A stretch of 64,000 nucleotides of DNA from a virus. Lineage: Duplodnaviria > Caudoviricetes. Made by a program: the position numbers and the translations under genes. Below, one piece after another: positions 734-27,573 of the stretch. The notes beneath the pieces were generated by a model that was not told where the DNA came from, searched no databases, and saw only the letters and a list, made by a program, of their open reading frames with translations. The DNA lies in IMG/VR virus record IMGVR_UViG_3300014208_000036, positions 24,794-88,793 of that record, one strand, 5' to 3'. Within the stretch, counting starts at the first letter, position 1. Each line of letters starts with the position of its first letter.

Positions 734-806
734 GGGGCTGTAACTCAATTGGAAGAGTGCTAGCTTTGCAAGCTGGAAGTTAAGGGTTCGAGTCCCTTCA
801 GCTCCA
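734..806 (+). tRNA. tRNA-Ala(UGC)
   Basis: GGGGCTG acceptor, CTAGC-TTTGCAA-GCTGG anticodon arm, TTCGAGT T-loop. Confidence 0.95.
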
Positions 807-875
807 CTGGATTTCCACCATTATGTAAGGCGCCGACGTCACAGTGACGTGACAGCAGGAGAGACTGCGACAATT

Positions 876-948
876 GCTTCCATGTGCATCTGGGTATGCA
901 GCGCCGCTGTCTACGGCGTGAGGCTCGGTTCGATTCCGGCTGGGAGCG
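876..948 (+). tRNA. tRNA-Asp(GUC), atypical T-stem bulge
   Basis: GCTTCCA/TGGGAGC acceptor, CGCCG-CTGTCTA-CGGCG anticodon arm, TTCGATT. Confidence 0.8.
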
Positions 949-951
949 CAA

Positions 952-1132
952 GGAGAAAGCCCTGGGTTCAATCCCCAGTAGACAAAAAATCCTCAGGAGA
1001 CTGAAATAGCAGTGATACTACTGACCTTCTACGAACACATGCGATGGCCAAAGCAGATGTTCATTAGAAGAACGAGAGCGCTCTCGTAGGTAAGTCACCC
1101 GGGTGTTTATGGTGTAATGGAAGCACATCTCC
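952..1132 (+). ncRNA. Circularly permuted tRNA-like domain (3' half 952-985 precedes 5' half 1103-1132)
   Basis: GGAGA/TCTCC anticodon stem, CTGGG-TTCAATC-CCCAG T-arm, TAGACA/TGTTTA acceptor, GTGT-AATGGAA-GCAC D-arm. Confidence 0.7.
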
Positions 1133-1137
1133 CCATT

Positions 1138-1209
1138 GGATGCGTGGACCACAGGAGGTCACCTGATTGTCTATCAGGCTTTACGCGGGTTCGAATCCCG
1201 TCGCGTCCG
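1138..1209 (+). tRNA. tRNA-Asp(GUC)
   Basis: GGATGCG/CGCGTCC acceptor, CCTGA-TTGTCTA-TCAGG anticodon arm. Confidence 0.9.
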
Positions 1210-1308
1210 CGTCGACCAAGTACACGGTCCCCTACCGCTTAGCGGCGGTCCGTGCGCCTGCCAAGAATCGCCTGAGAAACGATTATTGGGGGCAAATGAG
1301 GGGCCAAT

Positions 1309-1380
1309 AGAAGCGTCATTCAGCGGCTAGGATGCGGGTTTCCAACTCCCGTCACGTCGGTTCGAGTCCGACCGCTTCTG
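1309..1380 (+). tRNA. tRNA-Trp(CCA), U31-U39 mismatch (Gly UCC register less likely)
   Basis: AGAAGCG/CGCTTCT acceptor, CGGGT-TTCCAAC-TCCCG, GTCGG-TTCGAGT-CCGAC. Confidence 0.75.
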
Positions 1381-1383
1381 CGA

Positions 1384-1587
1384 ATGTTTAAGATAAAATT
1401 CCACGATTTCCCAGGTGATATTCCAATTGATACGAAGATAGCTTTACTCGAAAAAAAGCAGACGCTGTCAACGAAAAAACAAGCGAAGACTTTCAGAAAA
1501 ATCGTCTTTTCAAGGACGAAGGCTGTCCTGAAGGAACGAGCTCGTAAGGAGATTTTGATCGAAATGCTTGATTTGGATCGAATCTAG
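1384..1587 (+). CDS. Hypothetical protein
   Basis: 67-aa ORF filling the gap between tRNAs. Confidence 0.6.
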   Translation: MFKIKFHDFPGDIPIDTKIALLEKKQTLSTKKQAKTFRKIVFSRTKAVLKERARKEILIEMLDLDRI

Positions 1588-1595
1588 TTGATAAC

Positions 1596-1666
1596 CGCGA
1601 GTCGGCGCGTCGACGCAATGTGTTCATGAACGTTGTGTGTAGGTTCAAATCCTACGCTCGCGACCA
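1596..1666 (+). tRNA. Aberrant tRNA-like gene (8-nt loop GTTCATGA, non-canonical D-arm, encoded CCA)
   Basis: CGCGAGT/GCTCGCG acceptor, GTAGG-TTCAAAT-CCTAC T-arm, ACCA end. Confidence 0.7.
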
Positions 1667-1668
1667 AC

Positions 1669-1741
1669 GGGGATGTAGTACAGAGGATTAGTGCGCCAGG
1701 TTCTGACCCTGGAAACGTGTGTTCGATTCCCACCATCCCTA
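1669..1741 (+). tRNA. tRNA-Gln(CUG)
   Basis: CCAGG-TTCTGAC-CCTGG anticodon arm; GGGGATG/CATCCCT acceptor; one T-stem mismatch. Confidence 0.85.
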
Positions 1742-1761
1742 CAAAGAACGTAGAATATCAT

Positions 1762-1836
1762 GCGCTGTTAGCACAGAGGTTGGTGCATTGGGCTTTGAAC
1801 CCGAGGACCTTCGTTCGAATCGAAGACGGCGTACCA
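1762..1836 (+). tRNA. tRNA-Gln(UUG)
   Basis: TTGGG-CTTTGAA-CCCGA anticodon arm; encoded CCA. Confidence 0.9.
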
Positions 1837-1994
1837 CAGCGAATTTAGCTGTGTATAGATGCTACACAGGTAGTATCATAAAATTGATGGAACAATTACT
1901 TCAAACTTCATTGAAGTGGTGATTTGTTGCATACGAACAGGTACGATCGACTGTTCGTTCAATGTTCCGATGCTCGATCGATAAAAAAGTGAAA

Positions 1995-2309
1995 ATGGCA
2001 AAGAATCGTTTTCGAGTTGATTCCAGTCGGTATGAATCCGTTGACGTTGTGCATCCTGAAATGCAGGATATTGATTCGCTCGCTATCCTAACGGATGATG
2101 AGCTCGGTGCTCGTGCACGAACGCTTGAAGGTGAACGAACTTCCATGCTTGTCGAGCAGGCACGTGAGGCGAATGTCATTCCTTGGGAGGTTGAAATTGC
2201 ATACGTGCGGCGAGAGCAGCAGATCAGGAAGCTTCGTCGTGATGCTCACGAGGCATACCTGGAAAGGTTGCAGACCCAACGTTCTGCGAAGAGCGGGAGA
2301 TCCAACTGA
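1995..2309 (+). CDS. Hypothetical protein
   Basis: ORF (track start 1962; ATG 1995 preferred) overlapping the sigma gene start. Confidence 0.7.
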   Translation: MAKNRFRVDSSRYESVDVVHPEMQDIDSLAILTDDELGARARTLEGERTSMLVEQAREANVIPWEVEIAYVRREQQIRKLRRDAHEAYLERLQTQRSAKSGRSN

Positions 2310-3181
2310 TGATCGATCGATCGTTAAAGGTCGATCGATCGAGGAAGGAAAGCTCGAAGCACGTTGCGATCGATACGTACCTAACTTCACTTCAAAAAAT
2401 TCCGCAACTCAAACATGCTGAACTCGTTTCATTGTTTGAAAAATACGTCGCAGGTCGTAAACAGATCGAGGATGATGTTTATGAACGAACGCCGGAGGCA
2501 GACCGCATCAGGAAAAAACTGATTGAGTCAAATCTTCGGCTCGTTGTTTCGATCGCAAAGCAATACAAGGTTGGAAATATCTCGCTTGAGGATTTGATTC
2601 AAGAGGGAAATATCGGCCTTATGAAGGCTATCGAACGATTCGATCATGAAAAAGGATTCAGATTTTCCACGTATGCAACGTGGTGGATCAAGCAATCGAT
2701 CGGACAATTTCTCCTGAAAAACAAGAGGATGATCAGGTTGCCTGCTCATGCGGCGACGATTCAAAGGAAATTGATTCAAGCAACAGAGGAATTCAAGGAG
2801 CAAACGGGAACGATTCCCACAAATGAAGAATTAACGGAGATCCTCGGCGCTTCAGAGGTCGTTGTTAACGCAACGATTCATTCGAACAAAAACATCGTAT
2901 CGTTGAACGATACGTGCGGGCGTTCTGATGGATCGGACGGAAATACCTACGAAAATAGGATCGTCGATGATCGACCTGGTGTTGATCCGTTTGATAACGT
3001 TCTCGAAAAGCAACTGATCGATGTGGTCAGTGAGGTTCTCAGCACGCTTTCGCCGAAGGAATCAGCAGTTCTCAGGTTGAGATTCGGGCTCGTCGATGAT
3101 TGTATCGATCAGGAATCGTATCCAATCACAGTCAATGAACTTGAAGCGCTGAAATCTGGCGAAGGCATGCAGGATCCATGA
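2309..3181 (+). CDS. Sigma70-family RNA polymerase sigma factor (regions 1.2-4.1; region 4.2 HTH absent)
   Basis: NLRLVVSIAKQY, DLIQEGNIGLMKAIERFD, GFRFSTYATWWIKQSI, RMIRLP, LSPKESAVLRLRFGL. Confidence 0.95.
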   Translation: MIDRSLKVDRSRKESSKHVAIDTYLTSLQKIPQLKHAELVSLFEKYVAGRKQIEDDVYERTPEADRIRKKLIESNLRLVVSIAKQYKVGNISLEDLIQEGNIGLMKAIERFDHEKGFRFSTYATWWIKQSIGQFLLKNKRMIRLPAHAATIQRKLIQATEEFKEQTGTIPTNEELTEILGASEVVVNATIHSNKNIVSLNDTCGRSDGSDGNTYENRIVDDRPGVDPFDNVLEKQLIDVVSEVLSTLSPKESAVLRLRFGLVDDCIDQESYPITVNELEALKSGEGMQDP

Positions 3182-3447
3182 TTACGATGTTTGGTTGTTT
3201 GATGACCTGCGCAATGATTGCGATGCAAATCGCATCGCTTTTGTTGATTGTTTACATTGCAACAAAAGCTCACGAACTTTGCACGGAAAAGAAAGCGGCT
3301 TCAACACCTGAACCTTCAAAACGATCGGGTGTTGAAGCCGTTAAAGGCCTCGCAACGAGGCTTGATGAATTGCACACAACAAGGTTAGCACCGAAGGTTA
3401 GGAACGTTTGGAATGTCGAAGAAAAGAACAACGATCGCGACGAGTGA
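3178..3447 (+). CDS. Small membrane protein
   Basis: N-terminal hydrophobic helix; ATGA overlap with sigma gene. Confidence 0.6.
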   Translation: MITMFGCLMTCAMIAMQIASLLLIVYIATKAHELCTEKKAASTPEPSKRSGVEAVKGLATRLDELHTTRLAPKVRNVWNVEEKNNDRDE

Positions 3448-3601
3448 TCATAGACCTATTTTCGTGTATGATCGAACAACGCAAATGACAAAACCGTTGT
3501 TCATTGTCTACGATGTCAACCTCGTTGGATTGATCATCGATCGGTGCTTTTCAAGCATCGCAGAACAACTCCACGTATCAACGTTCAAACTCCATCCCTA
3601 G
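3413..3601 (+). CDS. Hypothetical small protein
   Basis: Short ORF filling a gap; start uncertain. Confidence 0.3.
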   Translation: MSKKRTTIATSDHRPIFVYDRTTQMTKPLFIVYDVNLVGLIIDRCFSSIAEQLHVSTFKLHP

Positions 3602-3652
3602 CACCGAGTGCGATGCAATGGCATTCAGTGAAACCAACAAATCAACAAGGAA

Positions 3653-3940
3653 ATGATGAGTAAAGAATACAGTACGGTCACCGCCGATGATGGCGTTAAT
3701 TACCGCGAAATTGCGGAAACGATGACATTGCTCGGATTTAAGATGAATCATTCGTCGGCACGCAATAACGTGATTCGAATCATGGAAAAATTTGTAAAAG
3801 CGATCATTGATGAAAAATTGATCGATGATCAGGAAAAAATTACCGCCATCGCTCGATCATCATCATTTCAATCAGCATTGTCCATTATGCTTCAAACGAT
3901 CGAAATGGGCCGACGCGATAAGCGAAAGTCGCATAGGTAG
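3653..3940 (+). CDS. HTH protein resembling sigma region 4.2
   Basis: NYREIAETMTLLGFKMNHSSARNNVIRIMEKF. Confidence 0.7.
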   Translation: MMSKEYSTVTADDGVNYREIAETMTLLGFKMNHSSARNNVIRIMEKFVKAIIDEKLIDDQEKITAIARSSSFQSALSIMLQTIEMGRRDKRKSHR

Positions 3941-3944
3941 AAAC

Positions 3945-4370
3945 ATGAAAATTAAGATGAAAAATCAACCAAGACTTCGACTTGCTGATTTGTTACGACG
4001 CAGAAAAATGTCATTGACACGATTTATGTCCGAATTTGGCATTACCACGTACGCGGAATTGGTCGATAAATCAACGCGTATCGGTGTTGTTGCTCCAGCA
4101 CAGCATGAATTTGATGCTTTAGGATTGGAGGTTGTGAACGATCCAATGAACGGTGTTATCGTTGTTGGTCCACAGGAATCGCCAGATGACGAGTGTCCTC
4201 CACCCGGCTGGCAACCGAGCGAGGAAGATCTTTCTCGAATGGAGAGCGCTCCCATGTACGATCCAGATGCACACATGGGTGGTGAACAGGAAGAAATTGC
4301 CGGCAAACAAATATTGAGCGAATTGAAGAAGAAATCTTCAAGAAAATCAAAGAAGGGTTCCGATGTCTGA
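3945..4370 (+). CDS. Hypothetical protein (possible N-terminal HTH, acidic middle, basic tail)
   Basis: ATG 3945 in the 3825..4370 frame. Confidence 0.7.
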   Translation: MKIKMKNQPRLRLADLLRRRKMSLTRFMSEFGITTYAELVDKSTRIGVVAPAQHEFDALGLEVVNDPMNGVIVVGPQESPDDECPPPGWQPSEEDLSRMESAPMYDPDAHMGGEQEEIAGKQILSELKKKSSRKSKKGSDV

Positions 4371-4671
4371 GGAACGATTTCCGCGATTGCGCATGATTGA
4401 TGTTGAACCCCGTCGACAAAAAAAGCAAAATGATGGAAGGCATCATCGAAATGATGAATTTTCGGACATTGTTTCCATCGTTAAAAACAGGTGTTCACAA
4501 GCGTACGAAAAAGGTAGAAAAGAGGGCGTCCTCGTCGCCGCGGATGTAATTGAGATCATTGTGAATAGACTCCGTGAAGTTCAAGTTGGTAAATCATTGA
4601 CAGTTGAGGAAGTTATTTCCGACGCCGAGTCATCGATTCATGAACTACGTAACACGATCAAACGTACGTAA
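4363..4671 (+). CDS. Hypothetical protein
   Basis: Operonic overlap with neighbours. Confidence 0.65.
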   Translation: MSEERFPRLRMIDVEPRRQKKQNDGRHHRNDEFSDIVSIVKNRCSQAYEKGRKEGVLVAADVIEIIVNRLREVQVGKSLTVEEVISDAESSIHELRNTIKRT

Positions 4672-4682
4672 TACGTATTTGG

Positions 4683-5066
4683 GTGATGATCGTCATCCCA
4701 AAATTTGATGCGTGGGTGAGGGATTCATTGAACATCGTTGACGATCCACTTCTCAAGGAATACATCGTAGGCGTTCTTCTTGACGTTGTAAATTCAAAAA
4801 TTTCCGTTGATGAGTCATTGACGTTAATGTTGATCGATGGAATCGATAAGCGTAATTTTTCGCTTCTACAACGGACAGGGGATGCAGCGTTGTGGAACAT
4901 GATCATGTTTCCTACGACCAACTTTGAGGTAGCGCGCAACGTTGGTAGAACCGCATACAAGAATTGTCACGTGATACTGAACGGTTCATTTAAGTTGTAC
5001 GAAGTATTATCCTGCGACCTGGTGGATATCACGAGAACGGTTCGACAAGCCATCGTAATACGCTAA
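4683..5066 (+). CDS. Hypothetical protein
   Basis: 127-aa ORF in operon. Confidence 0.65.
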   Translation: MMIVIPKFDAWVRDSLNIVDDPLLKEYIVGVLLDVVNSKISVDESLTLMLIDGIDKRNFSLLQRTGDAALWNMIMFPTTNFEVARNVGRTAYKNCHVILNGSFKLYEVLSCDLVDITRTVRQAIVIR

Positions 5067-5072
5067 GCGAGG

Positions 5073-5103
5073 TTGTGCAACGCGCAGCCAGCCATGGTAT
5101 AGT
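5073..5103 (+). promoter_or_regulatory. Phage promoter motif TTGTGCA-N16-GGTATAGT
   Basis: Recurs at 5372-5402, 11224-11254, 16913-16944, 20064-20095, 23011-23041. Confidence 0.6.
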
Positions 5104-5111
5104 TGTCGTAT

Positions 5112-5393
5112 ATGGCATACTACGGTTTTAAACCAAATCCGAAGCAGCTTGTGATCAACAAGGCAATGAGTGTTTTCGGGCGCGAAGCCAAGATCAAGGT
5201 TACGGGAGCGAGGCTAACGCCCATCGAGTGCAAGGTTTCGACCCTGCCCGATGATAGCTATCATGTTGAGTGCATCGTCGACGGACAGGTTGTTGGCCAG
5301 TCCAACTCCAGAAATTGGCGAAATGCATACAAGCAGCTTGCGGAAAAAATTGGTGCGTTGAAATCTCAAAATGTGCAAGGCCCTACGCTGTAG
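5112..5393 (+). CDS. Hypothetical protein, C-terminal half resembles a dsRBD-like fold
   Basis: YHVECIVDGQVVGQSNSRNWRNAYKQLA pattern; ATG 8 nt after -10 element. Confidence 0.55.
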   Translation: MAYYGFKPNPKQLVINKAMSVFGREAKIKVTGARLTPIECKVSTLPDDSYHVECIVDGQVVGQSNSRNWRNAYKQLAEKIGALKSQNVQGPTL

Positions 5394-5402
5394 TGGTATA
5401 AA
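5372..5402 (+). promoter_or_regulatory. Phage promoter motif TGTGCA-N17-GGTATAAA
   Basis: Upstream of MoxR ATPase gene. Confidence 0.6.
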
Positions 5403-5453
5403 GGGTCAAGTTACCAAGTAACGAAAAGAAAGTGAACGGAGAAAAGAACCAAA

Positions 5454-6578
5454 ATGTCCAGCATGACCATCAAGACCTTTGTCAATGTCGCCAAGCGACT
5501 TCCCGCCGACACGAGCATCCTGATCAGGGGCGCTCACGGTATCGGAAAGAGTCAGATCGTGAGGCAAATTGCGGAGCAACTCCGCAGTTTGATGAACCTC
5601 GCTGAGCTGCCAGTCATCGATCGACGACTCTCACAGATGAGTGAGGGTGATGTCGTCGGTCTTCCTTCGACGGACGGAAACGTCACCCGATTCAATCCTC
5701 CGGATTGGTACAAGAAGGCCTGTGTCGAGCCTTGCATCCTTTTTCTCGATGAGCTCAACAGGGCGACGCCCGAGGTGATGCAGGCAGCGTTCCAGATCGT
5801 TCTCGATCGCGAGCTGAATGGGCACAGGCTTCACCCGCAGACCAGGGTGTTCTCCGCTGTGAACGCTTCGGCTGCATACACCGTCAACGAAATCGATCCG
5901 GCACTGCTCGATCGTTTTTGGACGATCGATCTCGATCCAGATCGTGATGATTGGCTCGCATGGGCGCGTGAGAGCGGAATCGCCGATTGTATCATCGAGT
6001 TCCACAGCGTCAATTCGAACTGGCTCGACACGCCAAAGAACGTTGAATCGAACGTTGTTGCTCCCTCACGAAGGTCGTGGGAGCGTCTCAGCAAGGCATT
6101 GGTTGCTGAGGAACTGGCTGAAAAGCCCGATGATAACCTCTTTTATTCGATTTGCATCGGATATGTCGGCACGGAAGCGTCGATCGCATTCACGCAATTC
6201 TGCAAGACGATCGACAACCGTTTCTCCGGAAAGGATATCATCAACGACTACGATTCCGTCAGGAAGAAGGTCCTGCGTGGAAACAGCATCAGCATCATGA
6301 ATGCTGCATGCGATTACGTTGCTGAGTACCTTCTCACGCTCGACAAGGTTACTCCTGAGCAGGGAGAGAACCTCAGGAAGTTCTTCAACGATGTTCCCAA
6401 GGAGCTGCGGCTCAACACCTGGGGCAAGGTCGTGAAGCACGGTGTTCAGAAGCTTGACCTTGCGGCGAGCATCCACGAATACGTTGTCGATGCCCTGCTC
6501 GAGGTCTTCGGTACGAAGCGAGGAGCTGCGGGTGTCGGGATGGTCCCCATCATCCCCGACATCTTCAACAAGAAGTGA
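5454..6578 (+). CDS. MoxR-like AAA+ ATPase
   Basis: Walker A GAHGIGKS, Walker B ILFLDELNRA, DPALLDRF, PSRRSW. Confidence 0.92.
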   Translation: MSSMTIKTFVNVAKRLPADTSILIRGAHGIGKSQIVRQIAEQLRSLMNLAELPVIDRRLSQMSEGDVVGLPSTDGNVTRFNPPDWYKKACVEPCILFLDELNRATPEVMQAAFQIVLDRELNGHRLHPQTRVFSAVNASAAYTVNEIDPALLDRFWTIDLDPDRDDWLAWARESGIADCIIEFHSVNSNWLDTPKNVESNVVAPSRRSWERLSKALVAEELAEKPDDNLFYSICIGYVGTEASIAFTQFCKTIDNRFSGKDIINDYDSVRKKVLRGNSISIMNAACDYVAEYLLTLDKVTPEQGENLRKFFNDVPKELRLNTWGKVVKHGVQKLDLAASIHEYVVDALLEVFGTKRGAAGVGMVPIIPDIFNKK

Positions 6579-6583
6579 GTTTG

Positions 6584-6618
6584 AGGGCGACCACCTACTT
6601 ACGTAGGTGGTCGCCTTT
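6584..6618 (+). terminator. Intrinsic terminator after the ATPase gene
   Basis: GGCGACCACCTAC-TTAC-GTAGGTGGTCGCC 13-bp stem followed by TTT. Confidence 0.75.
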
Positions 6619-7089
6619 GATGAAATCATCTGGAAAAATAAATCGCTCGCCAGGCATCAAAAAAGATCAAAGTGTGGTAGGAGCGATGTTGGACGCCTCA
6701 AAAGGGAATTCGATGCGATCGATTCAATCGAAAAGGTTGTCGAGCATTGCAAATCACTGAACTTGAGAATCAAGTTCACCAACGAACCCGATGGTTCAAT
6801 TTACTTCGAGTCGAGCATCATCTCGATAAATTCAAGGTTGAACCCTATCAGACAATTGAACGTTATTCTCCATGAACTCGGTCATTTCAACGTTGAATCG
6901 AAAAATATCCTATGCGATCATCTATCGAACAGCATCGATTCGGTTCACAATGAACTGAATGCATGGGTTGAGGGCATGTCGATAGCACGGTCGTTGAAGA
7001 TCAACATTGATGCAACAGCGTATGAACGTGATCGTACCATGTACGTTAAAACGTACATGAAATCAGCGCTTCGAAGGAAAAAACCGTGA
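6607..7089 (+). CDS. HExxH metallopeptidase-like (ImmA/IrrE-type) protein; start uncertain
   Basis: VILHELGH and downstream NELNAW; track GTG start lies inside the terminator hairpin. Confidence 0.65.
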   Translation: MVAFDEIIWKNKSLARHQKRSKCGRSDVGRLKREFDAIDSIEKVVEHCKSLNLRIKFTNEPDGSIYFESSIISINSRLNPIRQLNVILHELGHFNVESKNILCDHLSNSIDSVHNELNAWVEGMSIARSLKINIDATAYERDRTMYVKTYMKSALRRKKP

Positions 7090-7535
7090 GCAAACATCCT
7101 CAACTTTTGTACGTCAACGGAGCATCGATGACACCTCCGGATGAGGTTACGATGGCTCTTGTGAAGATTTTGATGATCGAAGAAGGATTGATTCCAATCG
7201 ATTTTCAAACGCAGGCAATTCATTGTTTCAACTATTCGATCTTCTGCCAGAATCTTGGAAAGTCGTTGTCGGATCCAGCGAACAAGAAACGTCGACGGAA
7301 GTTCAGGAAATTGTGGCGGGCATGCATGAAGCATGATATCGAGATCATGCTACAAACCCGAGGAAAACCTGCGGTCGACAATCCAGAAATTTTTAGGACG
7401 ATCCGACATGATGTGGAGGTAAGGTACGGTCTTGGAAAGGCGTCAAGGAACGCCAATCACATTCGTTTCATCGCAGTCGTCTCTTTCCTACTTGAAAAAG
7501 CATTGAACGTAACCGGAAAAGGAGTCACCGAATGA
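7086..7535 (+). CDS. Hypothetical protein
   Basis: GTGA overlap with upstream ORF. Confidence 0.65.
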   Translation: MSKHPQLLYVNGASMTPPDEVTMALVKILMIEEGLIPIDFQTQAIHCFNYSIFCQNLGKSLSDPANKKRRRKFRKLWRACMKHDIEIMLQTRGKPAVDNPEIFRTIRHDVEVRYGLGKASRNANHIRFIAVVSFLLEKALNVTGKGVTE

Positions 7536-19288: not shown

Positions 19289-19292
19289 ACAT

Positions 19293-20202: not shown

Positions 20203-20217
20203 GAACGAAGGTGTTGT

Positions 20218-20531: not shown

Positions 20532-20536
20532 AATAT

Positions 20537-20623: not shown

Positions 20624-20653
20624 CAAATTCTGTTCCGAAGCATAGATAATTCT

Positions 20654-21025
20654 ATGATCAGGAAATTCAAGAATTTCATCATTGCATCGATGGTAACAGT
20701 TTCAATGCTCCTTTGGCCGTCTCGGGCATTCTCGGGCCCTGAGAGAGGGACCTTAATTGATGTGAGGGTGTTACAGGGTTCTCAAATAATCAAATATTCT
20801 GATGTCAACGTGAGACCGGATCAGCCGGTACAATTCTGGGTTTCTAGTTCGGATGATATCCTGTGCGTCCTTTCATACAAGGATGATCTTGGCAAGGAAT
20901 GGGTTTTCGACCATCGCTCCGGTAAGGTATGCAACATGCAGATCGTTCCAAAACGTTCCCAATTAAGCCTGTCGGTGACGAACTTGACGAACGTCGAGGA
21001 AAAAATTGTGACCGTCATTCAATGA
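20654..21025 (+). CDS. Hypothetical exported protein
   Basis: Signal-peptide-like N-terminus from ATG 20654. Confidence 0.6.
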   Translation: MIRKFKNFIIASMVTVSMLLWPSRAFSGPERGTLIDVRVLQGSQIIKYSDVNVRPDQPVQFWVSSSDDILCVLSYKDDLGKEWVFDHRSGKVCNMQIVPKRSQLSLSVTNLTNVEEKIVTVIQ

Positions 21026-21030
21026 CAAAT

Positions 21031-21105
21031 ATCCCCGTAGCATCAATGGACTAGAGTGCCTCGCTACGAACGAGGAGGTTGCAGGTTCGAATCCTGCCGG
21101 GGATG
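21031..21105 (+). tRNA. tRNA-Arg(ACG)
   Basis: ATCCCCG/CGGGGAT, CCTCG-CTACGAA-CGAGG. Confidence 0.92.
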
Positions 21106-21114
21106 CCGAATTTA

Positions 21115-21200
21115 GTAACCTTTGTCAGGAGGCGTCAATAATCTAAAGCGGGTGTAAAACACTGCGCTGTTAATGAATACGGGTTCGAGTCCGTAGGTGA
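21115..21200 (+). pseudogene. Possible decayed tRNA
   Basis: T-arm-like TACGGG-TTCGAGT-CCGTA and hairpin AGCG-GTGT-AAA-ACAC-CGCT, no good acceptor or D arm. Confidence 0.3.
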
Positions 21201-21212
21201 AAAATTCATAAT

Positions 21213-21294
21213 GCACTCGTGGTGGAATTGGTAGACACGCCGGGTTTAGGTTCCGGTGCTGCAAAGCGTGGGGGTTCGAGTCCCTCCGAGTGTA
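21213..21294 (+). tRNA. tRNA-Leu(UAG)
   Basis: GCACTCG/CGAGTGT, CCGGG-TTTAGGT-TCCGG. Confidence 0.93.
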
Positions 21295-21304
21295 CAAGAG
21301 TCAG

Positions 21305-21377
21305 GCTGGTTAAGCCGAACGGTGAGGCAGGTCTTTCATACGGACTGCGACGATGGGTTCGAATCCCTCAACCAGCA
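21305..21377 (+). tRNA. tRNA-Met/Ile2(CAU)
   Basis: GCTGGTT/AACCAGC, GGTCT-TTCATAC-GGACT; T-stem bulge. Confidence 0.8.
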
Positions 21378-21385
21378 CAAATCAT

Positions 21386-21464
21386 GCCCCGGTATCGGAC
21401 GGGTCTTCTAAGCCTGAGCACCGTAGTTGGATCGACGGGGGTTCGAATCCCTCCCGGGGTGCCA
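21386..21464 (+). tRNA. D-armless tRNA-Arg(UCU)-like RNA with long variable region
   Basis: GCCCCGG/CCGGGGT G CCA, 7-nt linker TATCGGA, CGGGT-CTTCTAA-GCCTG, 20-nt V region, GGGGG-TTCGAAT-CCCTC. Confidence 0.75.
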
Positions 21465-21474
21465 ACGAGTCGTT

Positions 21475-21921
21475 ATGCAAACAAAGATCTGTTCATTCGA
21501 TGGTGAATTTTCGTTTCTTTCGAATTTTTTTGAATCATCGATCAGGGTCGATGGTGAAAAATATCCCACAGTTGAACACGCGTACCAGGCATCAAAAACG
21601 TTCGATCCTTGGCAACGAAGGTTGATAAGGGAAGCGCCCACACCGGGAAAGGCAAAACGTCTTGGAAAAACAGTCAAGAAAAGGGACGATTGGGATGACA
21701 TAAGGATCGGTGTCATGGAGTCTTTGCTACGTGACAAATTCTCAAGCCCATTTTTAGCGCAAATGCTCATTGCAACCGATGACGCTACATTGATCGAAGG
21801 AAATACATGGGGTGATACATTTTGGGGCGTTTGTGGTGGAACAGGTGAGAATATGCTTGGAAAACTTTTGATGCAAATTCGAAGTGATCTGATCGTTGAT
21901 CAGGCGTCAAACGATGAATAA
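21475..21921 (+). CDS. NADAR (YbiA/DUF1768) family protein
   Basis: FLSNFF, YPTVEHAYQASK, AKRLGK, KFS, LIEGNTWGDTFWG, GENMLGKLLM. Confidence 0.92.
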   Translation: MQTKICSFDGEFSFLSNFFESSIRVDGEKYPTVEHAYQASKTFDPWQRRLIREAPTPGKAKRLGKTVKKRDDWDDIRIGVMESLLRDKFSSPFLAQMLIATDDATLIEGNTWGDTFWGVCGGTGENMLGKLLMQIRSDLIVDQASNDE

Positions 21922-21930
21922 GGTGTTGGC

Positions 21931-22137
21931 ATGTGGACATGCGTGGCCTTATTGACATTATTGGGTGCCTTAAGCATTGAACCAAATCGAAAATCGACCG
22001 ATCAAAGTGTTTGTCAAACGATCCACGATCGTGATGATAGAAATTTTTGTCGTGCAGTTGTAACTGGTAATAAAACTTGGTGTGAATTCATTCAGGATAA
22101 ACGAACAAAGGAACTTTGCAGGGTAAAATCAAGATGA
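21931..22137 (+). CDS. Small Cys-containing exported protein
   Basis: Signal-like N-terminus, spaced Cys. Confidence 0.55.
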   Translation: MWTCVALLTLLGALSIEPNRKSTDQSVCQTIHDRDDRNFCRAVVTGNKTWCEFIQDKRTKELCRVKSR

Positions 22138-22418
22138 GTAATGCACAGCGACCGCAGTTGAATTTTTCGGGTTCCGCAAGAATTATTTTCATGTATGACA
22201 TTGTCAAAAATGATTTTGAGGCGGCAATGCGTGATCTCGACCTGGTTATGATCACATCGATCAAGTCGATGAAGTTTGTTACAACGGATGCTGTTGTCAA
22301 GTTTATCAACGACCTTGACAAAGGTCGGCAAATCGTTGAAGCAGCGATAATTCAGAAACGTGATGTAGAGTTATTCGTTGATGTACGTGGTTCTGCACCT
22401 TTAGCTCAGTGGATTTAG
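22134..22418 (+). CDS. Hypothetical protein (3' end overlaps tRNA-Arg)
   Basis: ATGA overlap with previous ORF. Confidence 0.55.
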   Translation: MSNAQRPQLNFSGSARIIFMYDIVKNDFEAAMRDLDLVMITSIKSMKFVTTDAVVKFINDLDKGRQIVEAAIIQKRDVELFVDVRGSAPLAQWI

Positions 22419-22469
22419 AGCGACCGCCTTCGAAGCGGTTGGTCGGGGGTTCGAGTCCTTCAAGGTGCG
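22395..22469 (+). tRNA. tRNA-Arg(UCG)
   Basis: GCACCTT/AAGGTGC, ACCGC-CTTCGAA-GCGGT. Confidence 0.95.
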
Positions 22470-22471
22470 CA

Positions 22472-22630
22472 ATGAAATTATTCATTTTCATGTCAACCTT
22501 GATTCTTTCCTCATGCTACGGAGCGTGGGATATACCGGCGACGCCGCTTCATGATGAATGCTCGAACACAACATCAGTTGGTTACATTTACGTATATCCA
22601 TGTAAGATGAACGGAAATATTCAAAAATGA
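22472..22630 (+). CDS. Small putative lipoprotein
   Basis: MKLFIFMSTLILSSC lipobox-like. Confidence 0.55.
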   Translation: MKLFIFMSTLILSSCYGAWDIPATPLHDECSNTTSVGYIYVYPCKMNGNIQK

Positions 22631-23010
22631 ACGTGAAGCAGGTGATCGTGGTCCGTAAGGATTTAAACATGAGGAAGGGAAAAATCGCCGCGCAGGTTGC
22701 ACACGCAGCGATGAAATTCATCTTTGATGGAAATGTTGCGTCAAAATTGGATGAAATTTACGTAAAGCTATCGAAGGCTGAGACGAAGTGGGCTCGAGAA
22801 GGTTTCACAAAGATCGTTGTTTCCGTTGATTCCGAACAGGAGCTCTTGGACCTTTGCGAATCAGCACGAAGGAACAAGGTTGCATCGTACAAAATTATCG
22901 ATTCAGGTCGAACTGAGTTCGATAACGTTCCTACATTGACATGCGCCTCGTTCGGCCCAGATGATGAAAATCTCTTGGACAAGGTAACCGGGCATTTAAA
23001 GTTACTTTAA
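22627..23010 (+). CDS. pth2: Peptidyl-tRNA hydrolase, PTH2 family
   Basis: KQVIVVRKDLNMRKGKIAAQVAHA, KIVV, IIDSGRTEF, GP, VTGHLKLL. Confidence 0.93.
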   Translation: MNVKQVIVVRKDLNMRKGKIAAQVAHAAMKFIFDGNVASKLDEIYVKLSKAETKWAREGFTKIVVSVDSEQELLDLCESARRNKVASYKIIDSGRTEFDNVPTLTCASFGPDDENLLDKVTGHLKLL

Positions 23011-23041
23011 TTGTGCAAAATTTACGTACGTATGGTATTTC
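23011..23041 (+). promoter_or_regulatory. Phage promoter motif TTGTGCA-N16-GGTATTT
   Basis: Same motif as 5073 and 11224. Confidence 0.55.
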
Positions 23042-23353
23042 ATGATCATGAAGTACGTAATTCTACTCACCGGTCTCTTCATGATTGGTTGCAATGATGA
23101 AAGATTCGTGGATGAATCATACGATCAGCAGGAAACATTTGAAGCGCAGGATCCGCCGAGCTTCGATGATCATGATGAAGTTCTTCATGAATCATGCGTG
23201 ATGACACAAACGCTTGGTGAAGGTGATCTTGTAATTCAGGTTCCTGTTCCTTGTGAACCTGGCCTCATCGATAGGGGTCGACCTTCGGAGAATCCTATCG
23301 ATGACCATGATGAAATCATCAACGATCAGAAAGAATTTACGTTTGACACTTGA
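23042..23353 (+). CDS. Putative acidic lipoprotein
   Basis: MKYVILLTGLFMIGC lipobox. Confidence 0.65.
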   Translation: MIMKYVILLTGLFMIGCNDERFVDESYDQQETFEAQDPPSFDDHDEVLHESCVMTQTLGEGDLVIQVPVPCEPGLIDRGRPSENPIDDHDEIINDQKEFTFDT

Positions 23354-23355
23354 AT

Positions 23356-23441
23356 GGAACAGTGCGCGAGAAGGCTTAAGCGACAAGTTTGCTAAACTTG
23401 AGGGTGTAAAAGCTCCGTGAGTTCGAATCTCACCTGTTCCG
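23356..23441 (+). tRNA. tRNA-Ser(GCU)
   Basis: GGAACAG/CTGTTCC G73, CAAGT-TTGCTAA-ACTTG, V-arm. Confidence 0.93.
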
Positions 23442-23497
23442 CTAAGATCATGCATTATCCATCGTGTAAAAACGATGTATACTTAGAGGTAATTATT

Positions 23498-23584
23498 GGA
23501 AGGTTTGGGCATTGGAAGGCCCACCGGTCTTGAAAACCGACGTAGGTGATGAGCCTACTGCAAGTTCGACTCTTGCACCTTCCG
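23498..23584 (+). tRNA. tRNA-Ser(UGA)
   Basis: GGAAGGT/ACCTTCC G73, CCGGT-CTTGAAA-ACCGA, V-arm. Confidence 0.93.
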
Positions 23585-23585
23585 C

Positions 23586-23674
23586 CGATATTACGTGGCT
23601 GAGTGGATTAAGGCGGCCCGCAAGGGGCGAGGGGCATTGCCCCTCCACGGTGTTCGAATCCCGTCGTAATATCG
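23586..23674 (+). ncRNA. Anticodon-less class II tRNA mimic with 10-bp acceptor stem
   Basis: CGATATTACG/CGTAATATCG, Ser-like D-arm, GCCC-GCAAG-GGGC, V-arm GAGGGGC/GCCCCTC, T-arm TTCGAAT. Confidence 0.8.
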
Positions 23675-23686
23675 ATCTTGAAAAGT

Positions 23687-23878
23687 ATGTGTTACTTTTG
23701 CACAAAAGATGATATATTTAAGGTTGTTGATCATCGATCTCTCGACGTAAGACGAAAGCGAGCGCTTGAGTTGAAGGCACTCCTAGCGAACGTCAAGGAA
23801 GGTGAAACCTGTCAAACTGGTAACACGATCGTTGAAAGAATCAAAGAGGAACAGTACGAACTTTCAAAAAATTTGTGA
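23687..23878 (+). CDS. Hypothetical small protein
   Basis: CxxC N-terminus, coiled-coil-like. Confidence 0.55.
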   Translation: MCYFCTKDDIFKVVDHRSLDVRRKRALELKALLANVKEGETCQTGNTIVERIKEEQYELSKNL

Positions 23879-23921
23879 TGAATAAGATAATTTTCAATAT
23901 CCAAATTTTGGATGTTAAAAT

Positions 23922-23993
23922 GCAATTGTAATTCAGTGGTAGAATGTCGCGTTGCCAACGCGAATGTCGAGGGTTCGAACCCCTCCGATTGCT
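23922..23993 (+). tRNA. tRNA-Gly(GCC)
   Basis: GCAATTG/CGATTGC U73, TCGCG-TTGCCAA-CGCGA. Confidence 0.95.
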
Positions 23994-24005
23994 CAGATAA
24001 AATTC

Positions 24006-24650
24006 ATGTATCATTACGTGTATAAGATCAAAAATCTTGTGAATGGTAAAATTTACGTTGGGAAACATTCAACTAACGATCTTGACGATGGTTACATGGG
24101 TAGTGGAAAACTCATAGCGAAGGCTATCGCTAAGCACGGAATCGAAAATTTTCAAAAAGAAATCATTAAAATGTTTTCCTCCTCTGAGGAGGCTTTTGAA
24201 TTTGAACATAATTTCGTTAATGAAGAGTTCATTATCAGAACTGACACCTATAACTTGATTGTCGGTGGTGATGGATTTTTTGCGATCAATTCAAATGAGA
24301 ATCTTCGTAAAGCGAAAAATAGAAAAGCTGCGTTAGCAATGAACATTATAACTTGGGCTGATCCTGAGTTTAGAAAACGAAAGAGTGCTGCATTAATTGC
24401 ACAAACGAAAAAGTTATTTGCTGAAGGAAAGTTAGTCGCTCCAGACTGGACAGGAAAATTTCATTCTGAAGAATCAAAAGTGAAAATTGGTTTAGCGAAT
24501 TCATTGCATCAACGTGGTGAAAAGAATTCGCAATTTGGAACCATTTGGATTACAAATGATGTTGAAAAATGTTCAAAACGAATCAATAAAAATGAAATAG
24601 ATGATTACGTTAAGTTAGGTTGGCGCCGCGGACGGAAAATGAAGTGGTAG
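24006..24650 (+). mobile_element. Seg-like GIY-YIG homing endonuclease with NUMOD3-like repeats
   Basis: YVYKIKNLVNGKIYVGKHST, YMGSG, YNLIVGG; lies between two tRNA-Gly genes. Confidence 0.9.
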
Positions 24651-24659
24651 TTTAATCAT

Positions 24660-24733
24660 GCGAGATTGGCATATTGGTTGTGCCTCGCCCTTCCAAGGCG
24701 ATCAACGCAGTTCGATTCTGCGATCTCGCTCCA
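24660..24733 (+). tRNA. tRNA-Gly(UCC)
   Basis: GCGAGAT/ATCTCGC TCCA, TCGCC-CTTCCAA-GGCGA. Confidence 0.95.
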
Positions 24734-24738
24734 CGTTT

Positions 24739-24826
24739 GGAAAGATGACCGAGGGGTTTATGGTATCTGTCTCGAAAACAGAAGGGTGTAAAAGCTCCGC
24801 GGGTTCGAATCCCGCTCTTTCCTCCA
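24739..24826 (+). tRNA. tRNA-Ser(CGA), U73
   Basis: GGAAAGA/TCTTTCC, TCTGT-CTCGAAA-ACAGA, V-arm. Confidence 0.92.
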
Positions 24827-24827
24827 T

Positions 24828-24907
24828 GCCATCATGGTGAAATTGGTATACACGCTGCACTCAAAATGCGGTACGAAAGTTTGTGGGTTCGAGTCCCTCT
24901 GATGGCA
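24828..24907 (+). tRNA. tRNA-Leu(CAA)
   Basis: GCCATCA/TGATGGC, CTGCA-CTCAAAA-TGCGG. Confidence 0.92.
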
Positions 24908-24910
24908 CCG

Positions 24911-25210
24911 ATGACGTTTGAAGTAGAGGATCAAAAACGACTTGTGGTTCACTTTAAGAAGGAACCATTCGATGTTTACATCGGTAGGGGTTCCTATTGG
25001 GGAAATCCTTTCTCCGAAAAAAGTGGAACAAAGGCGATCGTAAAGGTTGATTCTAGGGAAGAAGCGATCGCTATGTACCGTGAATGGTTGTTGACGCAAC
25101 CTGACATGCTAGCTCGAGCCCGGCAAGAATTGAAAGGTAAGATCCTTGGGTGTTGGTGCTATCCAAAACCATGTCATGGAGATGTTCTCGTAGAATTGGT
25201 GAATGTGTAA
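24911..25210 (+). CDS. DUF4326 domain protein
   Basis: VYIGRGSYWGNPF, ELKGKILGCWCYPKPCHGDVL. Confidence 0.88.
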   Translation: MTFEVEDQKRLVVHFKKEPFDVYIGRGSYWGNPFSEKSGTKAIVKVDSREEAIAMYREWLLTQPDMLARARQELKGKILGCWCYPKPCHGDVLVELVNV

Positions 25211-25240
25211 AAAGAACGTAGATTTGCTTAATGTAATAAT

Positions 25241-25314
25241 GGGACATTAACTCAATTGGTCAGAGTAGCGGGCTCATAACTCGTTTGTTGAAGGTTCGAG
25301 TCCTTCATGTCCTA
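25241..25314 (+). tRNA. tRNA(CAU), likely Ile2 (or Met)
   Basis: GGGACAT/ATGTCCT, GCGGG-CTCATAA-CTCGT; directly upstream of tilS. Confidence 0.9.
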
Positions 25315-25337
25315 CAAAATTTTGCATTTGTGATAAA

Positions 25338-25970
25338 ATGCTCCATCAATTGATCAACATTCCACGCGACGAACATTTTTATGTTGCTTGTTCTGGAGGC
25401 GTTGATAGCATGGCTATTGCTTCGTTCTACAAATTAGGGAACAAGAAATTTACGTTGGCGTATTTCAATCATGGAACGCAGCAAGCAAATTCCATGGAAA
25501 AACACGTTCTAGAATGGGGCATGAAAAATGATGTTCCCGTTGTTGTGGGTACGATCAATGATGCGAGAACCCTTGGAAAGGGACATTCACCCGAGGAATA
25601 TTTTAGAACCTGCAGGTACGAATGGTTCGATAAATTGCCCGTGAGTAGTATCGTCACCTGTCATCATTTGAACGATGTTGCGGAAACGTGGATTTTTTCC
25701 AACTTGCATGGTGAAGCAAAATTAATTGCCTCCCGGCGTGGACGTTTTTTGCGACCCTTCTTGACGACTCCGAAGGAAAATCTCACCGAGTGGTGTCTAA
25801 GGCACGGTGTTGATTGGGTCGAGGATCGATCAAATGACGACCTGAACATCCCTAGGAACTTGATTCGTCACGTGATCCTGCCTCAGTCGTTGAAAATCAA
25901 TCCAGGCCTGTTGAAGGTTTTGAGGAAAAAATTGTTAGCACGGGAGAAAAACATCAATGGCAACGGATGA
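25338..25970 (+). CDS. tilS: tRNA(Ile)-lysidine synthase (catalytic domain only)
   Basis: PP-loop ACSGGVDS, YFNHG, RYEWF, TCHHLNDVAET, RPFL, RNLIRH. Confidence 0.9.
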   Translation: MLHQLINIPRDEHFYVACSGGVDSMAIASFYKLGNKKFTLAYFNHGTQQANSMEKHVLEWGMKNDVPVVVGTINDARTLGKGHSPEEYFRTCRYEWFDKLPVSSIVTCHHLNDVAETWIFSNLHGEAKLIASRRGRFLRPFLTTPKENLTEWCLRHGVDWVEDRSNDDLNIPRNLIRHVILPQSLKINPGLLKVLRKKLLAREKNINGNG

Positions 25971-26310
25971 TGATATTTTTAAGGAGCTCGTCGCGGTCAT
26001 CGCTGCTCAGGACAAGGTGTTAACGTCGCAACAACGGTACATTGAATTGATCGCCATGCATGTGGCGGTGATTTCAAAGTTGCTTCATCGTGTTGTTAAC
26101 AAGTGTACGTTCCCCGCCTGCGACAATCCGGCAACGGTTTCAATCGAGAGAGTTTCAACAAACGTTTGTGATCATCATGCTGCCGTTTATGTTCACGGCA
26201 ACGTTTGCACCGAGAGCGATGTTATCGATCATCCCGATGCAAAGGAAATTCGGATTCTTGATGATTTTCTCAACACGCTTGATGCGTCAAAAGAACCCAC
26301 CATGCAGTGA
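25957..26310 (+). CDS. Hypothetical protein with Cys/His cluster
   Basis: Coiled coil then CTFPAC...VCDHH. Confidence 0.6.
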   Translation: MATDDDIFKELVAVIAAQDKVLTSQQRYIELIAMHVAVISKLLHRVVNKCTFPACDNPATVSIERVSTNVCDHHAAVYVHGNVCTESDVIDHPDAKEIRILDDFLNTLDASKEPTMQ

Positions 26311-26331
26311 ATATTCATCATTCAAGATGAT

Positions 26332-27573
26332 ATGATCAGCATCATGGAACCGTTAGTTGTTTCCTTCCTCAGGAATCGTAGTTTTGATGATCTCGAGGCC
26401 GATCATGGTGTTTGCGCTCGATTGTCGAAGTGCGGGCGAAAGGTTTCGCTTAACTATGATCAACTTCTCGTGAAGAACGGCGATCCTGTCGCTGAACAGT
26501 GCAGGGGTCTGATCGTTCTTCTCGATGAAGTCATCGATCCGTCCACCTCTTGGAAAGCTAAGTCGCCAGGTAACGTTACGGTCATCGCATGGCCAATGAA
26601 TCGATTTTACAACTTTGGTGATCATTCGGGTGCGAATGTTGATTGGTCCGATAAGAACTTAAGGGTGTACGAAAAACTCGATGGCACGATGATCGTTCTT
26701 TATTGGGATCCGTCTTCTTCGCGGTGGTGCGTCGCCACGAGGGGCGTCCCCGACGCCGATGTTCCGATCTCAAGCAACGATCTTGAACTTCAGACGATGA
26801 CGTTCTCCGAACTGTTCTTCAGGGCCCTACGTGAAACACGTGAAGCGGAACAGGATCGTCCATTGGGATGGGAACCAGACGGTTTCGATGAAATTGTTCA
26901 CCTGAACAAGGATCTTACGTACGTTTTCGAATTAACATCGCAGTACAACAAGGTCGTTGTTCATTACGAAGCTCCTCGGGTTACGTTGCTGGCCGCGCGT
27001 CACACGACCTCGGGCCATGAAATTTCCATCGAAGAACTTCGCATTCAACACGTTCAACGACCTGTATCCTGGCAGCTCAATGAACCGTCAGCCATCTTTG
27101 CGTTCGTTGACTCCGCTGATCCTTCGAAGCTCGAAGGTTGCGTTGTGATCGATTCAAAGTTCAATCGCTTGAAGATCAAGAATAAGGCATGGGTTCTCGC
27201 TTCACGTACGAAGGATCGAATCATGTGCTCAAGGCGAGCGATCATCGAATCGATCATTGCAGGTACGATCGATGACGTAATTCCACTTTTGAGCGACGAA
27301 ATTGCATCGAAGGTTTGCGACCTTCGTGGAAAGGTTGCATCATTGTTCAGGATCGTTGATTCGACGTTCCATGAATTCCATGCACATGCTGGCAATGATC
27401 GTAAAGCATTTGCTCAGCTCGTGAAGTGTTCCGATCTTCGATGGAAGCAACCTTTCTTCCAACTGTACGACGGCCGAGCTGATTCGACGTCCGAGTGGGC
27501 TGAGAAGGCGGTAAAAGGCGGAACGATGACATCCAGTACCCTCGAGAATATTCTACGAGCCGTGGATAATTAA
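26332..27573 (+). CDS. RNA ligase, T4 Rnl1-like
   Basis: CRGLI, WPMNRFYN, motif I YEKLDGT, TYVFEL, EGCVV, LKIK. Confidence 0.85.
   Translation: MISIMEPLVVSFLRNRSFDDLEADHGVCARLSKCGRKVSLNYDQLLVKNGDPVAEQCRGLIVLLDEVIDPSTSWKAKSPGNVTVIAWPMNRFYNFGDHSGANVDWSDKNLRVYEKLDGTMIVLYWDPSSSRWCVATRGVPDADVPISSNDLELQTMTFSELFFRALRETREAEQDRPLGWEPDGFDEIVHLNKDLTYVFELTSQYNKVVVHYEAPRVTLLAARHTTSGHEISIEELRIQHVQRPVSWQLNEPSAIFAFVDSADPSKLEGCVVIDSKFNRLKIKNKAWVLASRTKDRIMCSRRAIIESIIAGTIDDVIPLLSDEIASKVCDLRGKVASLFRIVDSTFHEFHAHAGNDRKAFAQLVKCSDLRWKQPFFQLYDGRADSTSEWAEKAVKGGTMTSSTLENILRAVDN

Follow-up and report, generated by a model that had tools for sequence, protein, structure and literature searches.

The 64,000-nt stretch of DNA analyzed here (the window; bases 24794–88793 of the 88.8-kb IMG/VR viral contig IMGVR_UViG_3300014208_000036, CheckV completeness of 23%) carries arrays of tRNA genes in which enzyme genes and four abnormal tRNA-like elements are interleaved. 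This arrangement raises the question of whether the four elements are a deliberate repertoire of tRNA mimics, acting as decoys or ligase substrates, that forms one anti-defence system with the enzymes, as proposed in the original prediction. The elements are a back-to-front tRNA (c1, 950–1137), a tRNA(CAU)-like element (c2, 1596–1666), a rewired tRNA-Arg(UCU) (c3, 21386–21464), and an anticodon-less tRNA-Ser derivative (c4, 23586–23674). All four were found to be genuine sequence features, but they did not belong to one class. Taken as a whole, the region is probably a tRNA island of a known kind that contains four unrelated odd elements and no single decoy system, and the comparisons described below point to four different evolutionary histories for c1, c2, c3, and c4.

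The same phage was present in two further assemblies (contigs of 75.8 kb from JGI and 300 kb from ENA), which differed from window positions 1–13181 at 1 and 12 positions, respectively, and at none within 949–1666. A sister strain (L100), ~96–97% identical, was represented by another contig of JGI sample 3300037810. The next-closest phages were jumbo phages of 300–370 kb with only ~46–62% protein identity; individual loci of other phages are cited by L numbers. ARAGORN called 32 tRNA genes in the window, all on the plus strand (734–1836 and 16955–25315), which bears out the earlier estimate of about 30 ordinary tRNAs, and Rfam added 18603–18679 and 21386–21461, both above the tRNA threshold. 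Seven extra tRNAs were located just upstream of the window (Ile-GAU, Tyr, two Asn, two Lys, and one CAU tRNA), and the combined set covered all 20 amino acids.

The element c3 (21386–21464, plus strand; Rfam, 34.3 bits) was not called by ARAGORN. It is composed, in order, of the acceptor strand, UA, CGG, an anticodon arm with the loop CUUCUAA, CCG, UAGUUGGA, the T arm, the acceptor strand, G, and CCA. The element had been described as simply a D-armless mimic; however, its D-stem strands (CGG and CCG) are present on either side of the anticodon arm, and the D-loop-like UAGUUGGA comes after them. In this arrangement c3 differs from canonical tRNA-Arg(UCU) (RF00005), with which it shares the anticodon arm, 7-bp acceptor stem, T arm, encoded CCA, and genomic slot, as the sister strain L100 has a canonical tRNA-Arg(UCU) exactly at the c3 site. 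At the sequence level, only the anticodon arm was common to c3 and the L100 allele, and 32 of 79 positions differed.

A search with a pattern derived from the c3 layout matched 56 viral contigs, which corresponded to 28 distinct elements. The 7-bp acceptor stem was found in 28 of 28 members, as it was a selection criterion. Pairing in the anticodon stem was no such criterion; it was observed in 136 of 140 cells, with variation or covariation at all five positions. Most members encode CCA, and in all 28 the short strand before the anticodon arm pairs with the strand after it. For the eight jumbo-phage-type members, including c3, this enclosing helix is 3 bp with double compensatory changes (CGG/CCG, ACC/GGT, CAG/CTG, and CGA/TCG), and in the remaining twenty CCGAC/GTTGG alternates with CCAGC/GCTGG. 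Genes of this type occur in many 30–60-kb phage contigs, and no separate canonical tRNA-Arg(UCU) gene was found in the local arrays that hold them. ARAGORN detected no other UCU or CCU tRNA for the AGA and AGG codons in the window strain, and AGA is the commonest arginine codon of the phage (15.1 per 1000 codons). Because of the covariation within the family, the canonical allele at the L100 site, and the demand for AGA decoding, c3 was read as a decoding tRNA; it is most likely a tRNA-Arg(UCU) with a non-cloverleaf core and not a decoy, and by its sequence it belongs to a widespread phage family of such tRNAs. We infer its aminoacylation and decoding from codon use.

Three points weigh against this reading of c3. 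The fold was no better than that of shuffled sequence (z = +0.7), so that the earlier description of the elements as well paired holds for c2, c4, and the joined form of c1 but not for c3; the enclosing helix of c3 has only 3 bp; and the invariant anticodon loop of the family was built into the search pattern. An initial interpretation of c3 as a decayed or damaged allele was dropped after the family search. A limited literature search retrieved no published description of or name for the c3 layout, and a 2024 paper describes all known bacterial tRNAs as cloverleaf (PMC11551756).

The element c2 (1596–1666, plus strand) matched the Rfam tRNA model at 20 bits, below threshold, and folded better than shuffled sequence (z = −2.2). 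Its acceptor stem is 7 bp long, its T arm is normal, and CCA is encoded; the loop, GUUCAUGA, has 8 nt, and a small hairpin is found instead of a D arm with GG. Counterparts were observed between tRNA-Trp and tRNA-Gln in four related lineages (L015, L027, L019/L020, and L021). They share a TCGGCG-type hairpin and a CAU-containing loop (ACCAUGG or ACCAUAA), and their stems are fully re-paired despite near-total sequence change. By these features, c2 is a clade-conserved, non-canonical tRNA(CAU)-like RNA that looks to be under selection. A pattern scan returned at least 121 matches; among the matches listed, the tRNA-like ones were already-known members only. Assignment of c2 as an initiator-type tRNA was rejected on two grounds: a pair forms at position 1–72, and the three G-C pairs are missing from the anticodon stem.

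The element c4 (23586–23674, plus strand; z = −2.55) is a class II RNA derived from tRNA-Ser without an anticodon. It comprises a 10-bp terminal stem, a Ser-type D arm, a 4–5-bp hairpin with GCAA, a 7-bp variable arm, and a T arm that is canonical if one U is read as bulged. Outside the lineage of the window strain and L100, the best matches to a c4 covariance model were normal tRNA-Ser(UGA) genes of distant relatives (46.6 bits), and no other anticodon-less copy was found by this model in 775 kb. In L008, the nearest relative at this locus, nothing follows the tRNA-Ser(UGA), and a pattern scan for the D arm combined with the bulged T arm yielded chance matches only. By sequence, c4 is a young, lineage-specific tRNA-Ser derivative that would be unable to decode.

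The element c1 consists of two tRNA halves in reverse order on the plus strand. The 3′ half (950–986: anticodon-stem 3′ strand GGAGA, variable loop, T arm, and acceptor 3′ strand) begins 1–3 nt after the tRNA-Asp gene at 876–948 and is followed by a structured 116-nt spacer with two hairpins (987–1102), for which no homologue was found. The 5′ half (1103–1137: acceptor 5′ strand, U8, D arm with GG, and anticodon-stem 5′ strand TCTCC with CCATT) ends flush with the second tRNA-Asp gene at 1138–1210. When 1103–1137 was joined to 950–986, the resulting 72 nt were called as a tRNA by ARAGORN; 20 of the 21 stem pairs form in it, U8 and G18G19 are present, and the T loop is normal. None of ~239 inter-tRNA gaps (~155 + 84) from other phages passed the same test at default thresholds, and c1 was reproduced identically in the two other assemblies (three in all). 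On this evidence c1 is a genuine back-to-front tRNA found in this phage alone, most simply a unique permuted tRNA that was produced by rearrangement.

A further step would be to regard c1 as a true circularly permuted tRNA gene, the halves of which are freed by processing of the flanking tRNA-Asp transcripts and sealed by the phage RNA ligase Rnl1. An RNase P cut at the 5′ end of tRNA-Asp 1138 would create the 3′-OH of the 5′ half, 3′ processing of tRNA-Asp 876–948 would create the 5′-phosphate of the 3′ half, RNase P and 3′ trimming would take out the spacer, and Rnl1 would seal the nick in the anticodon loop. The intact joined form and its behaviour against the control gaps are in line with such a route, as are the abutting tRNA genes, which leave a loop of 7–8 nt in the joined halves, the ligase gene within the same island, and the spacer, in which no promoter-like or terminator-like consensus site was found. 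The joined loop (CCAUUAA or CCAUUCAA), however, has no U33, and its anticodon would be AUU, which is superfluous next to the two tRNA-Asn(GUU) genes; moreover, the minimum-energy fold pairs the T-stem strand elsewhere. A search of 2.7 Mb of phage loci, from relatives and from others, gave no homologue of c1, and a pattern scan of IMG/VR retrieved ordinary neighbouring tRNAs only. The Asp-Asp or Asp-Trp gaps of syntenic relatives contained no permuted tRNA, and a metagenome scan with the tRNA-Asp 3′ end gave two unrelated stretches only, one with ordinary tRNA genes and one without. As cassette insertions in the very same array also produce tRNA fragments (described below), we consider a working permuted gene unlikely. 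No report of permuted tRNA genes, or of such a route of tRNA biogenesis, in bacteriophages was found in a literature search.

Other assignments of c1 were rejected more readily. For a permuted (two-piece) transfer-messenger RNA (tmRNA), the RF04321 score was 13.7 bits against a threshold of 47, and c1 has G3-C70, not G3:U70. A tandem tRNA duplicate interrupted by tRNA-Asp is at odds with the strong divergence of the two Asp genes and with the lack of any further halves next to them. A YrlA-type Y RNA (RF02553) likewise has a closed acceptor end and an anticodon stem formed by the two termini, but c1 showed no RF02553 match even at E up to 10, and no Ro60/TROVE gene was found in this contig or in two near-complete relatives. 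A "permuted" match in L022, obtained at a lowered threshold, had no T loop.

Comparison with L100 showed how halves and chimeras of tRNA genes can originate in this island. In L100:4390–5429, a tRNA-Leu(UAG) gene is split by a ~990-bp cassette that carries an endonuclease-I-like open reading frame (ORF; 4451–5269), a replacement tRNA-Leu(UAG) (5241–5326), and a chimeric CAU tRNA-like piece joined to the 3′ fragment of the former tRNA-Leu gene; the insertion leaves orphan 5′ and 3′ tRNA-Leu fragments. Three homing-endonuclease genes, unmentioned in the original prediction, were identified by profile search in the second array of the window, all on the plus strand: a DUF559/Vsr-like gene (17217–17828), an HNH endonuclease-like gene (18803–19288), and a GIY-YIG (SegE-like) gene (23952–24650). 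The first is not present in L100, and the HNH segment is replaced there by other DNA. The tRNA-Pro(UGG) gene at 17814–17887 differs between the two strains at 23 of 74 positions, while the adjoining tRNAs are nearly identical, which looks like a cassette-like allele replacement adjoining the DUF559 gene. A tRNA-Leu(UAA)-like copy (c5; 18603–18679, plus strand; found by Rfam, z = −0.36) retains only ~4 acceptor pairs, and an intact Leu(UAA) gene is located past the HNH gene at 19293–19375; c5 is probably a pseudogene. Since the split tRNA of L100 reveals where such pieces come from, rearrangement was taken as the default reading for c1 and c5, and the island would also be a hot spot of recombination into which free-standing homing endonucleases have moved.

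The same traffic, together with duplication, could in principle account for all the odd elements as non-functional pseudo-tRNA debris. The endonuclease genes and cassettes that differ by strain, the degraded acceptor stem of c5, and the lineage-specific occurrence of c1 and c4 agree with this view, and tRNA gene fragments are frequent in prokaryotes (PMC9897764). It is nevertheless very unlikely as a general explanation: compensatory changes are seen among the 28 distinct members of the c3 family, which occupies the tRNA-Arg(UCU) slot, and c2 has stayed at the same position in five lineages while its stems became fully re-paired.

The enzyme genes interleaved with the tRNAs on the same strand were confirmed by Pfam and NCBIfam as the Rnl1-type ligase, TilS, PTH2, and NADAR genes that had been proposed. 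The ligase (26332–27573; PF09511, 39.6 bits, cut-off 28.3) has a KLDG sequence that aligns with KEDG of the T4 Rnl1 structure 2C5U (motif I lysine, KxDG, the nucleotidyl-transfer site). Its score is far under the T4 RnlA equivalog level (TIGR02308, 69.6 bits vs. a cut-off of 242), and these matches identify it as a distant member of the T4 Rnl1 family. Peptidyl-tRNA hydrolase PTH2 (22627–23010) matched its family model above the cut-off along the full length (PF01981, 116.7 bits; TIGR00283, 107 bits, cut-off 82). The NADAR-domain protein (21475–21921; Pfam, 88.6 bits; also NCBIfam) and a DUF4326 protein (24866–25210; plus strand) are encoded in the same array. A tblastn search of related loci detected Rnl1 in nine, PTH2 in nine, and NADAR in eight, inside syntenic arrays, so that by homology Rnl1, PTH2, and NADAR are a conserved part of the tRNA island of this clade. 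A T4-type polynucleotide kinase/phosphatase (Pnkp; AAA_33 + HAD_PNKP) and Rnl1 were both found in the two of two relatives that are at least 90% complete, and a T4-like capacity to heal and seal tRNAs is therefore plausible.

TilS (25338–25970, plus strand) is represented by the catalytic (PP-loop) N-domain only (210 amino acids; PF01171, 104 bits; TIGR02432, 112 bits, cut-off 93.6). The C-terminal tRNA-recognition domains are missing, as NF007942 gave 55.9 vs. 606 bits and profile positions 15–202 of 439 were matched. A tRNA(CAU) gene called by ARAGORN (25241–25315, plus strand), presumed to be tRNA-Ile2, ends 23 nt before TilS. None of the nine related loci anchored on Rnl1 yielded TilS, and four of the nine hold tRNA-Ile(UAU) at that place; in L093, a more distant relative, a tRNA(CAU) again directly precedes TilS. 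The ATA codon is common in this phage (15.6 per 1000 codons). The presence of TilS is thus explained by the tRNA(CAU) immediately upstream, with relatives that have tRNA-Ile(UAU) there lacking TilS, and the gene appears to track a tRNA(CAU) gene. The part of the original prediction that concerns the enzyme set is supported by homology.

These results bear on the idea of a coordinated panel of decoys or ligase substrates. In its favour, the elements and the enzyme genes share one strand, where they are interleaved; tRNAs encoded by phages, as well as Rnl1/Pnkp, are an established means of countering defences that target tRNAs (PMC10264068, PMC11555353, PMC11464382); numerous tRNA-Lys-like genes of related phages have anticodon loops of 6 or 8 nt; and the fold of c4 is kept between two strains. 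Against this, the expected co-occurrence of mimics with the ligase was not observed, as c1, c3, and c4 were absent from all nine Rnl1-bearing relatives. The c3-type genes replace canonical tRNA-Arg(UCU) in many 30–60-kb phage contigs, c3 itself behaves as a decoding tRNA, and TilS is accounted for by its adjoining tRNA(CAU). NADAR and DUF4326 are treated, in the part of the jumbo-phage literature consulted, as ADP-ribose/NAD conflict genes and not as tRNA enzymes (PMC7824862). Sporadic occurrence without covariation, which had been named as evidence against a mimic repertoire, was found for c1 and c4 and not for c2 and c3; the latter two would thus be selected RNAs, which does not make them decoys. 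With four separate histories behind the elements, a single anti-defence system built on mimics is highly improbable.

We therefore return to the island of a known kind with four unrelated odd elements. In this reading the region is the tRNA island of an uncultured jumbo phage, with ~40 tRNA-type genes for 20 amino acids. The tRNAs are probably co-transcribed with a conserved enzyme set that would keep the tRNA pool usable during infection. In this set, the Rnl1 ligase would work with Pnkp, the latter found in complete relatives; PTH2, NADAR, and DUF4326 would be part of the pool-maintaining enzymes; and the TilS catalytic domain would serve the phage's own tRNA-Ile2(CAU). The elements c1–c4 would arise from a recombination-prone island and not as one system, and the island as a whole may have a role against host defences.

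Three further observations pull in the other direction. The halves of c1 are intact, with all tertiary-contact bases in addition to the 20 of 21 stem pairs, and their ends are flush with two tRNA genes, which is unlike what random decay predicts. L100 retains c4 with three substitutions (in the D-loop, in the variable-arm loop, and from A-U to G-U in the T stem) and a 2-nt insertion (CC, by which the short hairpin is extended to 5 bp), all compatible with the fold; these fold-preserving changes hint at selection, as a weak sign from four events. Finally, searches of the phage's own 88.8-kb contig, only 23% of the genome, gave no Pnkp and no CCA-adding enzyme.

The island was compared with known systems. 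Phage T4 has a tRNA gene cluster, and its Pnkp and Rnl1 repair tRNA-Lys cleaved by PrrC; besides tRNAs, the T4 cluster encodes two stable RNAs of another kind, species 1 and 2. The T4 cluster and repair system have been reviewed (PMC3400036, PMC2610378). The present island resembles it in clustered tRNA genes with free-standing homing endonucleases inside (SegB in T4), in an Rnl1-family ligase with the KxDG lysine motif, and in the T4-type Pnkp of complete relatives. It differs in the number of tRNA genes (~40 vs. 8 in T4), in the PTH2, TilS domain, NADAR, and DUF4326 genes interleaved with the tRNAs, and in its ligase, which scores far below the T4 equivalog cut-off; no Pnkp was found on the phage's own contig. 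It has been shown experimentally for T5 and other phages that tRNAs evade or neutralise tRNA-targeting defences (PMC10264068, PMC11555353, PMC11464382). Large tRNA sets and anticodon-loop variants are common to those phages and this island (here, the strain-level change A38C in tRNA-Gln(UUG)), but the defence-evading tRNAs are ordinary cloverleaves with point changes, whereas the deviations in this island are architectural and known from sequence alone.

The recurrent conflict genes of jumbo phages include RNA ligases with polynucleotide kinase/phosphatase, NADAR, and DUF4326, as described by Iyer et al. in 2021 (PMC7824862); unlike the island described here, the consulted part of that article makes no mention of non-cloverleaf or permuted tRNA genes in the arrays. 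With known permuted tRNA genes, c1 shares a 3′ half located upstream of the 5′ half on one strand and a cloverleaf that is open in the anticodon loop. In contrast to them, c1 has no bulge-helix-bulge motif or splicing endonuclease, so that neighbouring tRNAs would set its ends, and it has a 116-nt spacer and a layout that is not conserved in relatives. To our knowledge, bacteria do not have the splicing endonuclease. Circularly permuted tRNA genes occur in Cyanidioschyzon merolae, some green algae, and Thermofilum. Such genes have been reviewed (PMC4090602).

The in-window part of the first array (734–1836, plus strand; ARAGORN and Rfam) consists of Ala(UGC), two Asp(GUC), Trp, Gln(CUG), and Gln(UUG) genes. 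The array starts upstream of the window, and a promoter-like site, GTGAAC-N18-TATAGT, is located just 5′ of the in-window part (685–714, plus strand; consensus match only). The second array (16955–25315, plus strand; ARAGORN and Rfam) has 26 ARAGORN tRNAs with protein genes in between. No PHROGs match was obtained for the small ORFs of the arrays. The first tRNA-Asp(GUC) gene (876–948), accepted by ARAGORN, was below the Rfam tRNA threshold; its best Rfam match was the tRNA-Sec model (18 bits), and it has close relatives in L025 and L022. The tRNA-Gln(UUG) gene varied among the assemblies of the same phage at 1782, 1799, and 1836, with the change at 1799 being A to C at anticodon-loop position 38. 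Elsewhere in the window, gene calls at 8523–10647 gave an ATP-dependent DNA ligase in two pieces (8523–9245 and 10018–10647) with a separate 246-amino-acid ORF between them. Upstream of the window by ~300–460 bases (L005:4335–4491; contig positions 24335–24491), a 157-nt Rfam tRNA match (35 bits) was located between tRNA-Lys(CUU) and tRNA-Lys(UUU). It consists of a tRNA 5′ part, ~85 nt, and the T arm with the acceptor 3′ part; the arrangement may represent an insertion resembling an intron, or else an additional domain of large size.

Unusual tRNA-type elements were also observed in related phages. Runs of tRNA-Lys-like genes with short D loops and 6- or 8-nt anticodon loops (ATTTAG, CTTGCG, GTAATG, TAAATAA, and others) lie between Lys(CUU) and Lys(UUU) in L015:3661–3813, L016:3810–4030, L020:2934–3082, L022:2354–2788, L023:2287–2438, and L027:4422–4495, and judged by their loops these runs are a far clearer "loop-variant repertoire" than the content of the window. 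Conserved elements of ~80 nt were found in L015 (gap after 4690), L016 (after 5468), L019 (after 482), and L027 (after 5476). They have an alanine-type acceptor (G3:U70), a normal T arm, and a non-cloverleaf interior, GAAAGGCGAGTC...GGAAAGCCGACA, and in these features they resemble the tRNA-like domain of tmRNA. A conserved ~100-nt element after tRNA-Trp (L015:5776–5875, L023:4687–4790, L025:5383–5475, and L027:6245–6340) has a terminal stem of at least 9 bp, a T arm, and the internal motifs GAGGAAAG and CACAGAA; at this position, the window has a 67-amino-acid ORF in its place.

Phage tRNA arrays with repair enzymes are a known module for counter-defence and translation support, and the overall system is thus not new. 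The unusual part is that some of its tRNA-type genes depart from the cloverleaf rule, and do so in no fewer than three ways: the rewired c3, the clade-conserved CAU-loop RNA c2, and the back-to-front c1. The comparison of strains provides a direct view of endonuclease cassettes making and breaking tRNA genes, and it warns that not every tRNA-like fragment is an adaptation. If c1 were a working permuted gene, Rnl1 would serve tRNA biogenesis besides repair. If the c3-type genes are functional, cloverleaf-based finders may under-count phage tRNAs, and the assumption that bacterial-type translation uses cloverleaf tRNAs throughout (PMC11551756) would need qualifying.

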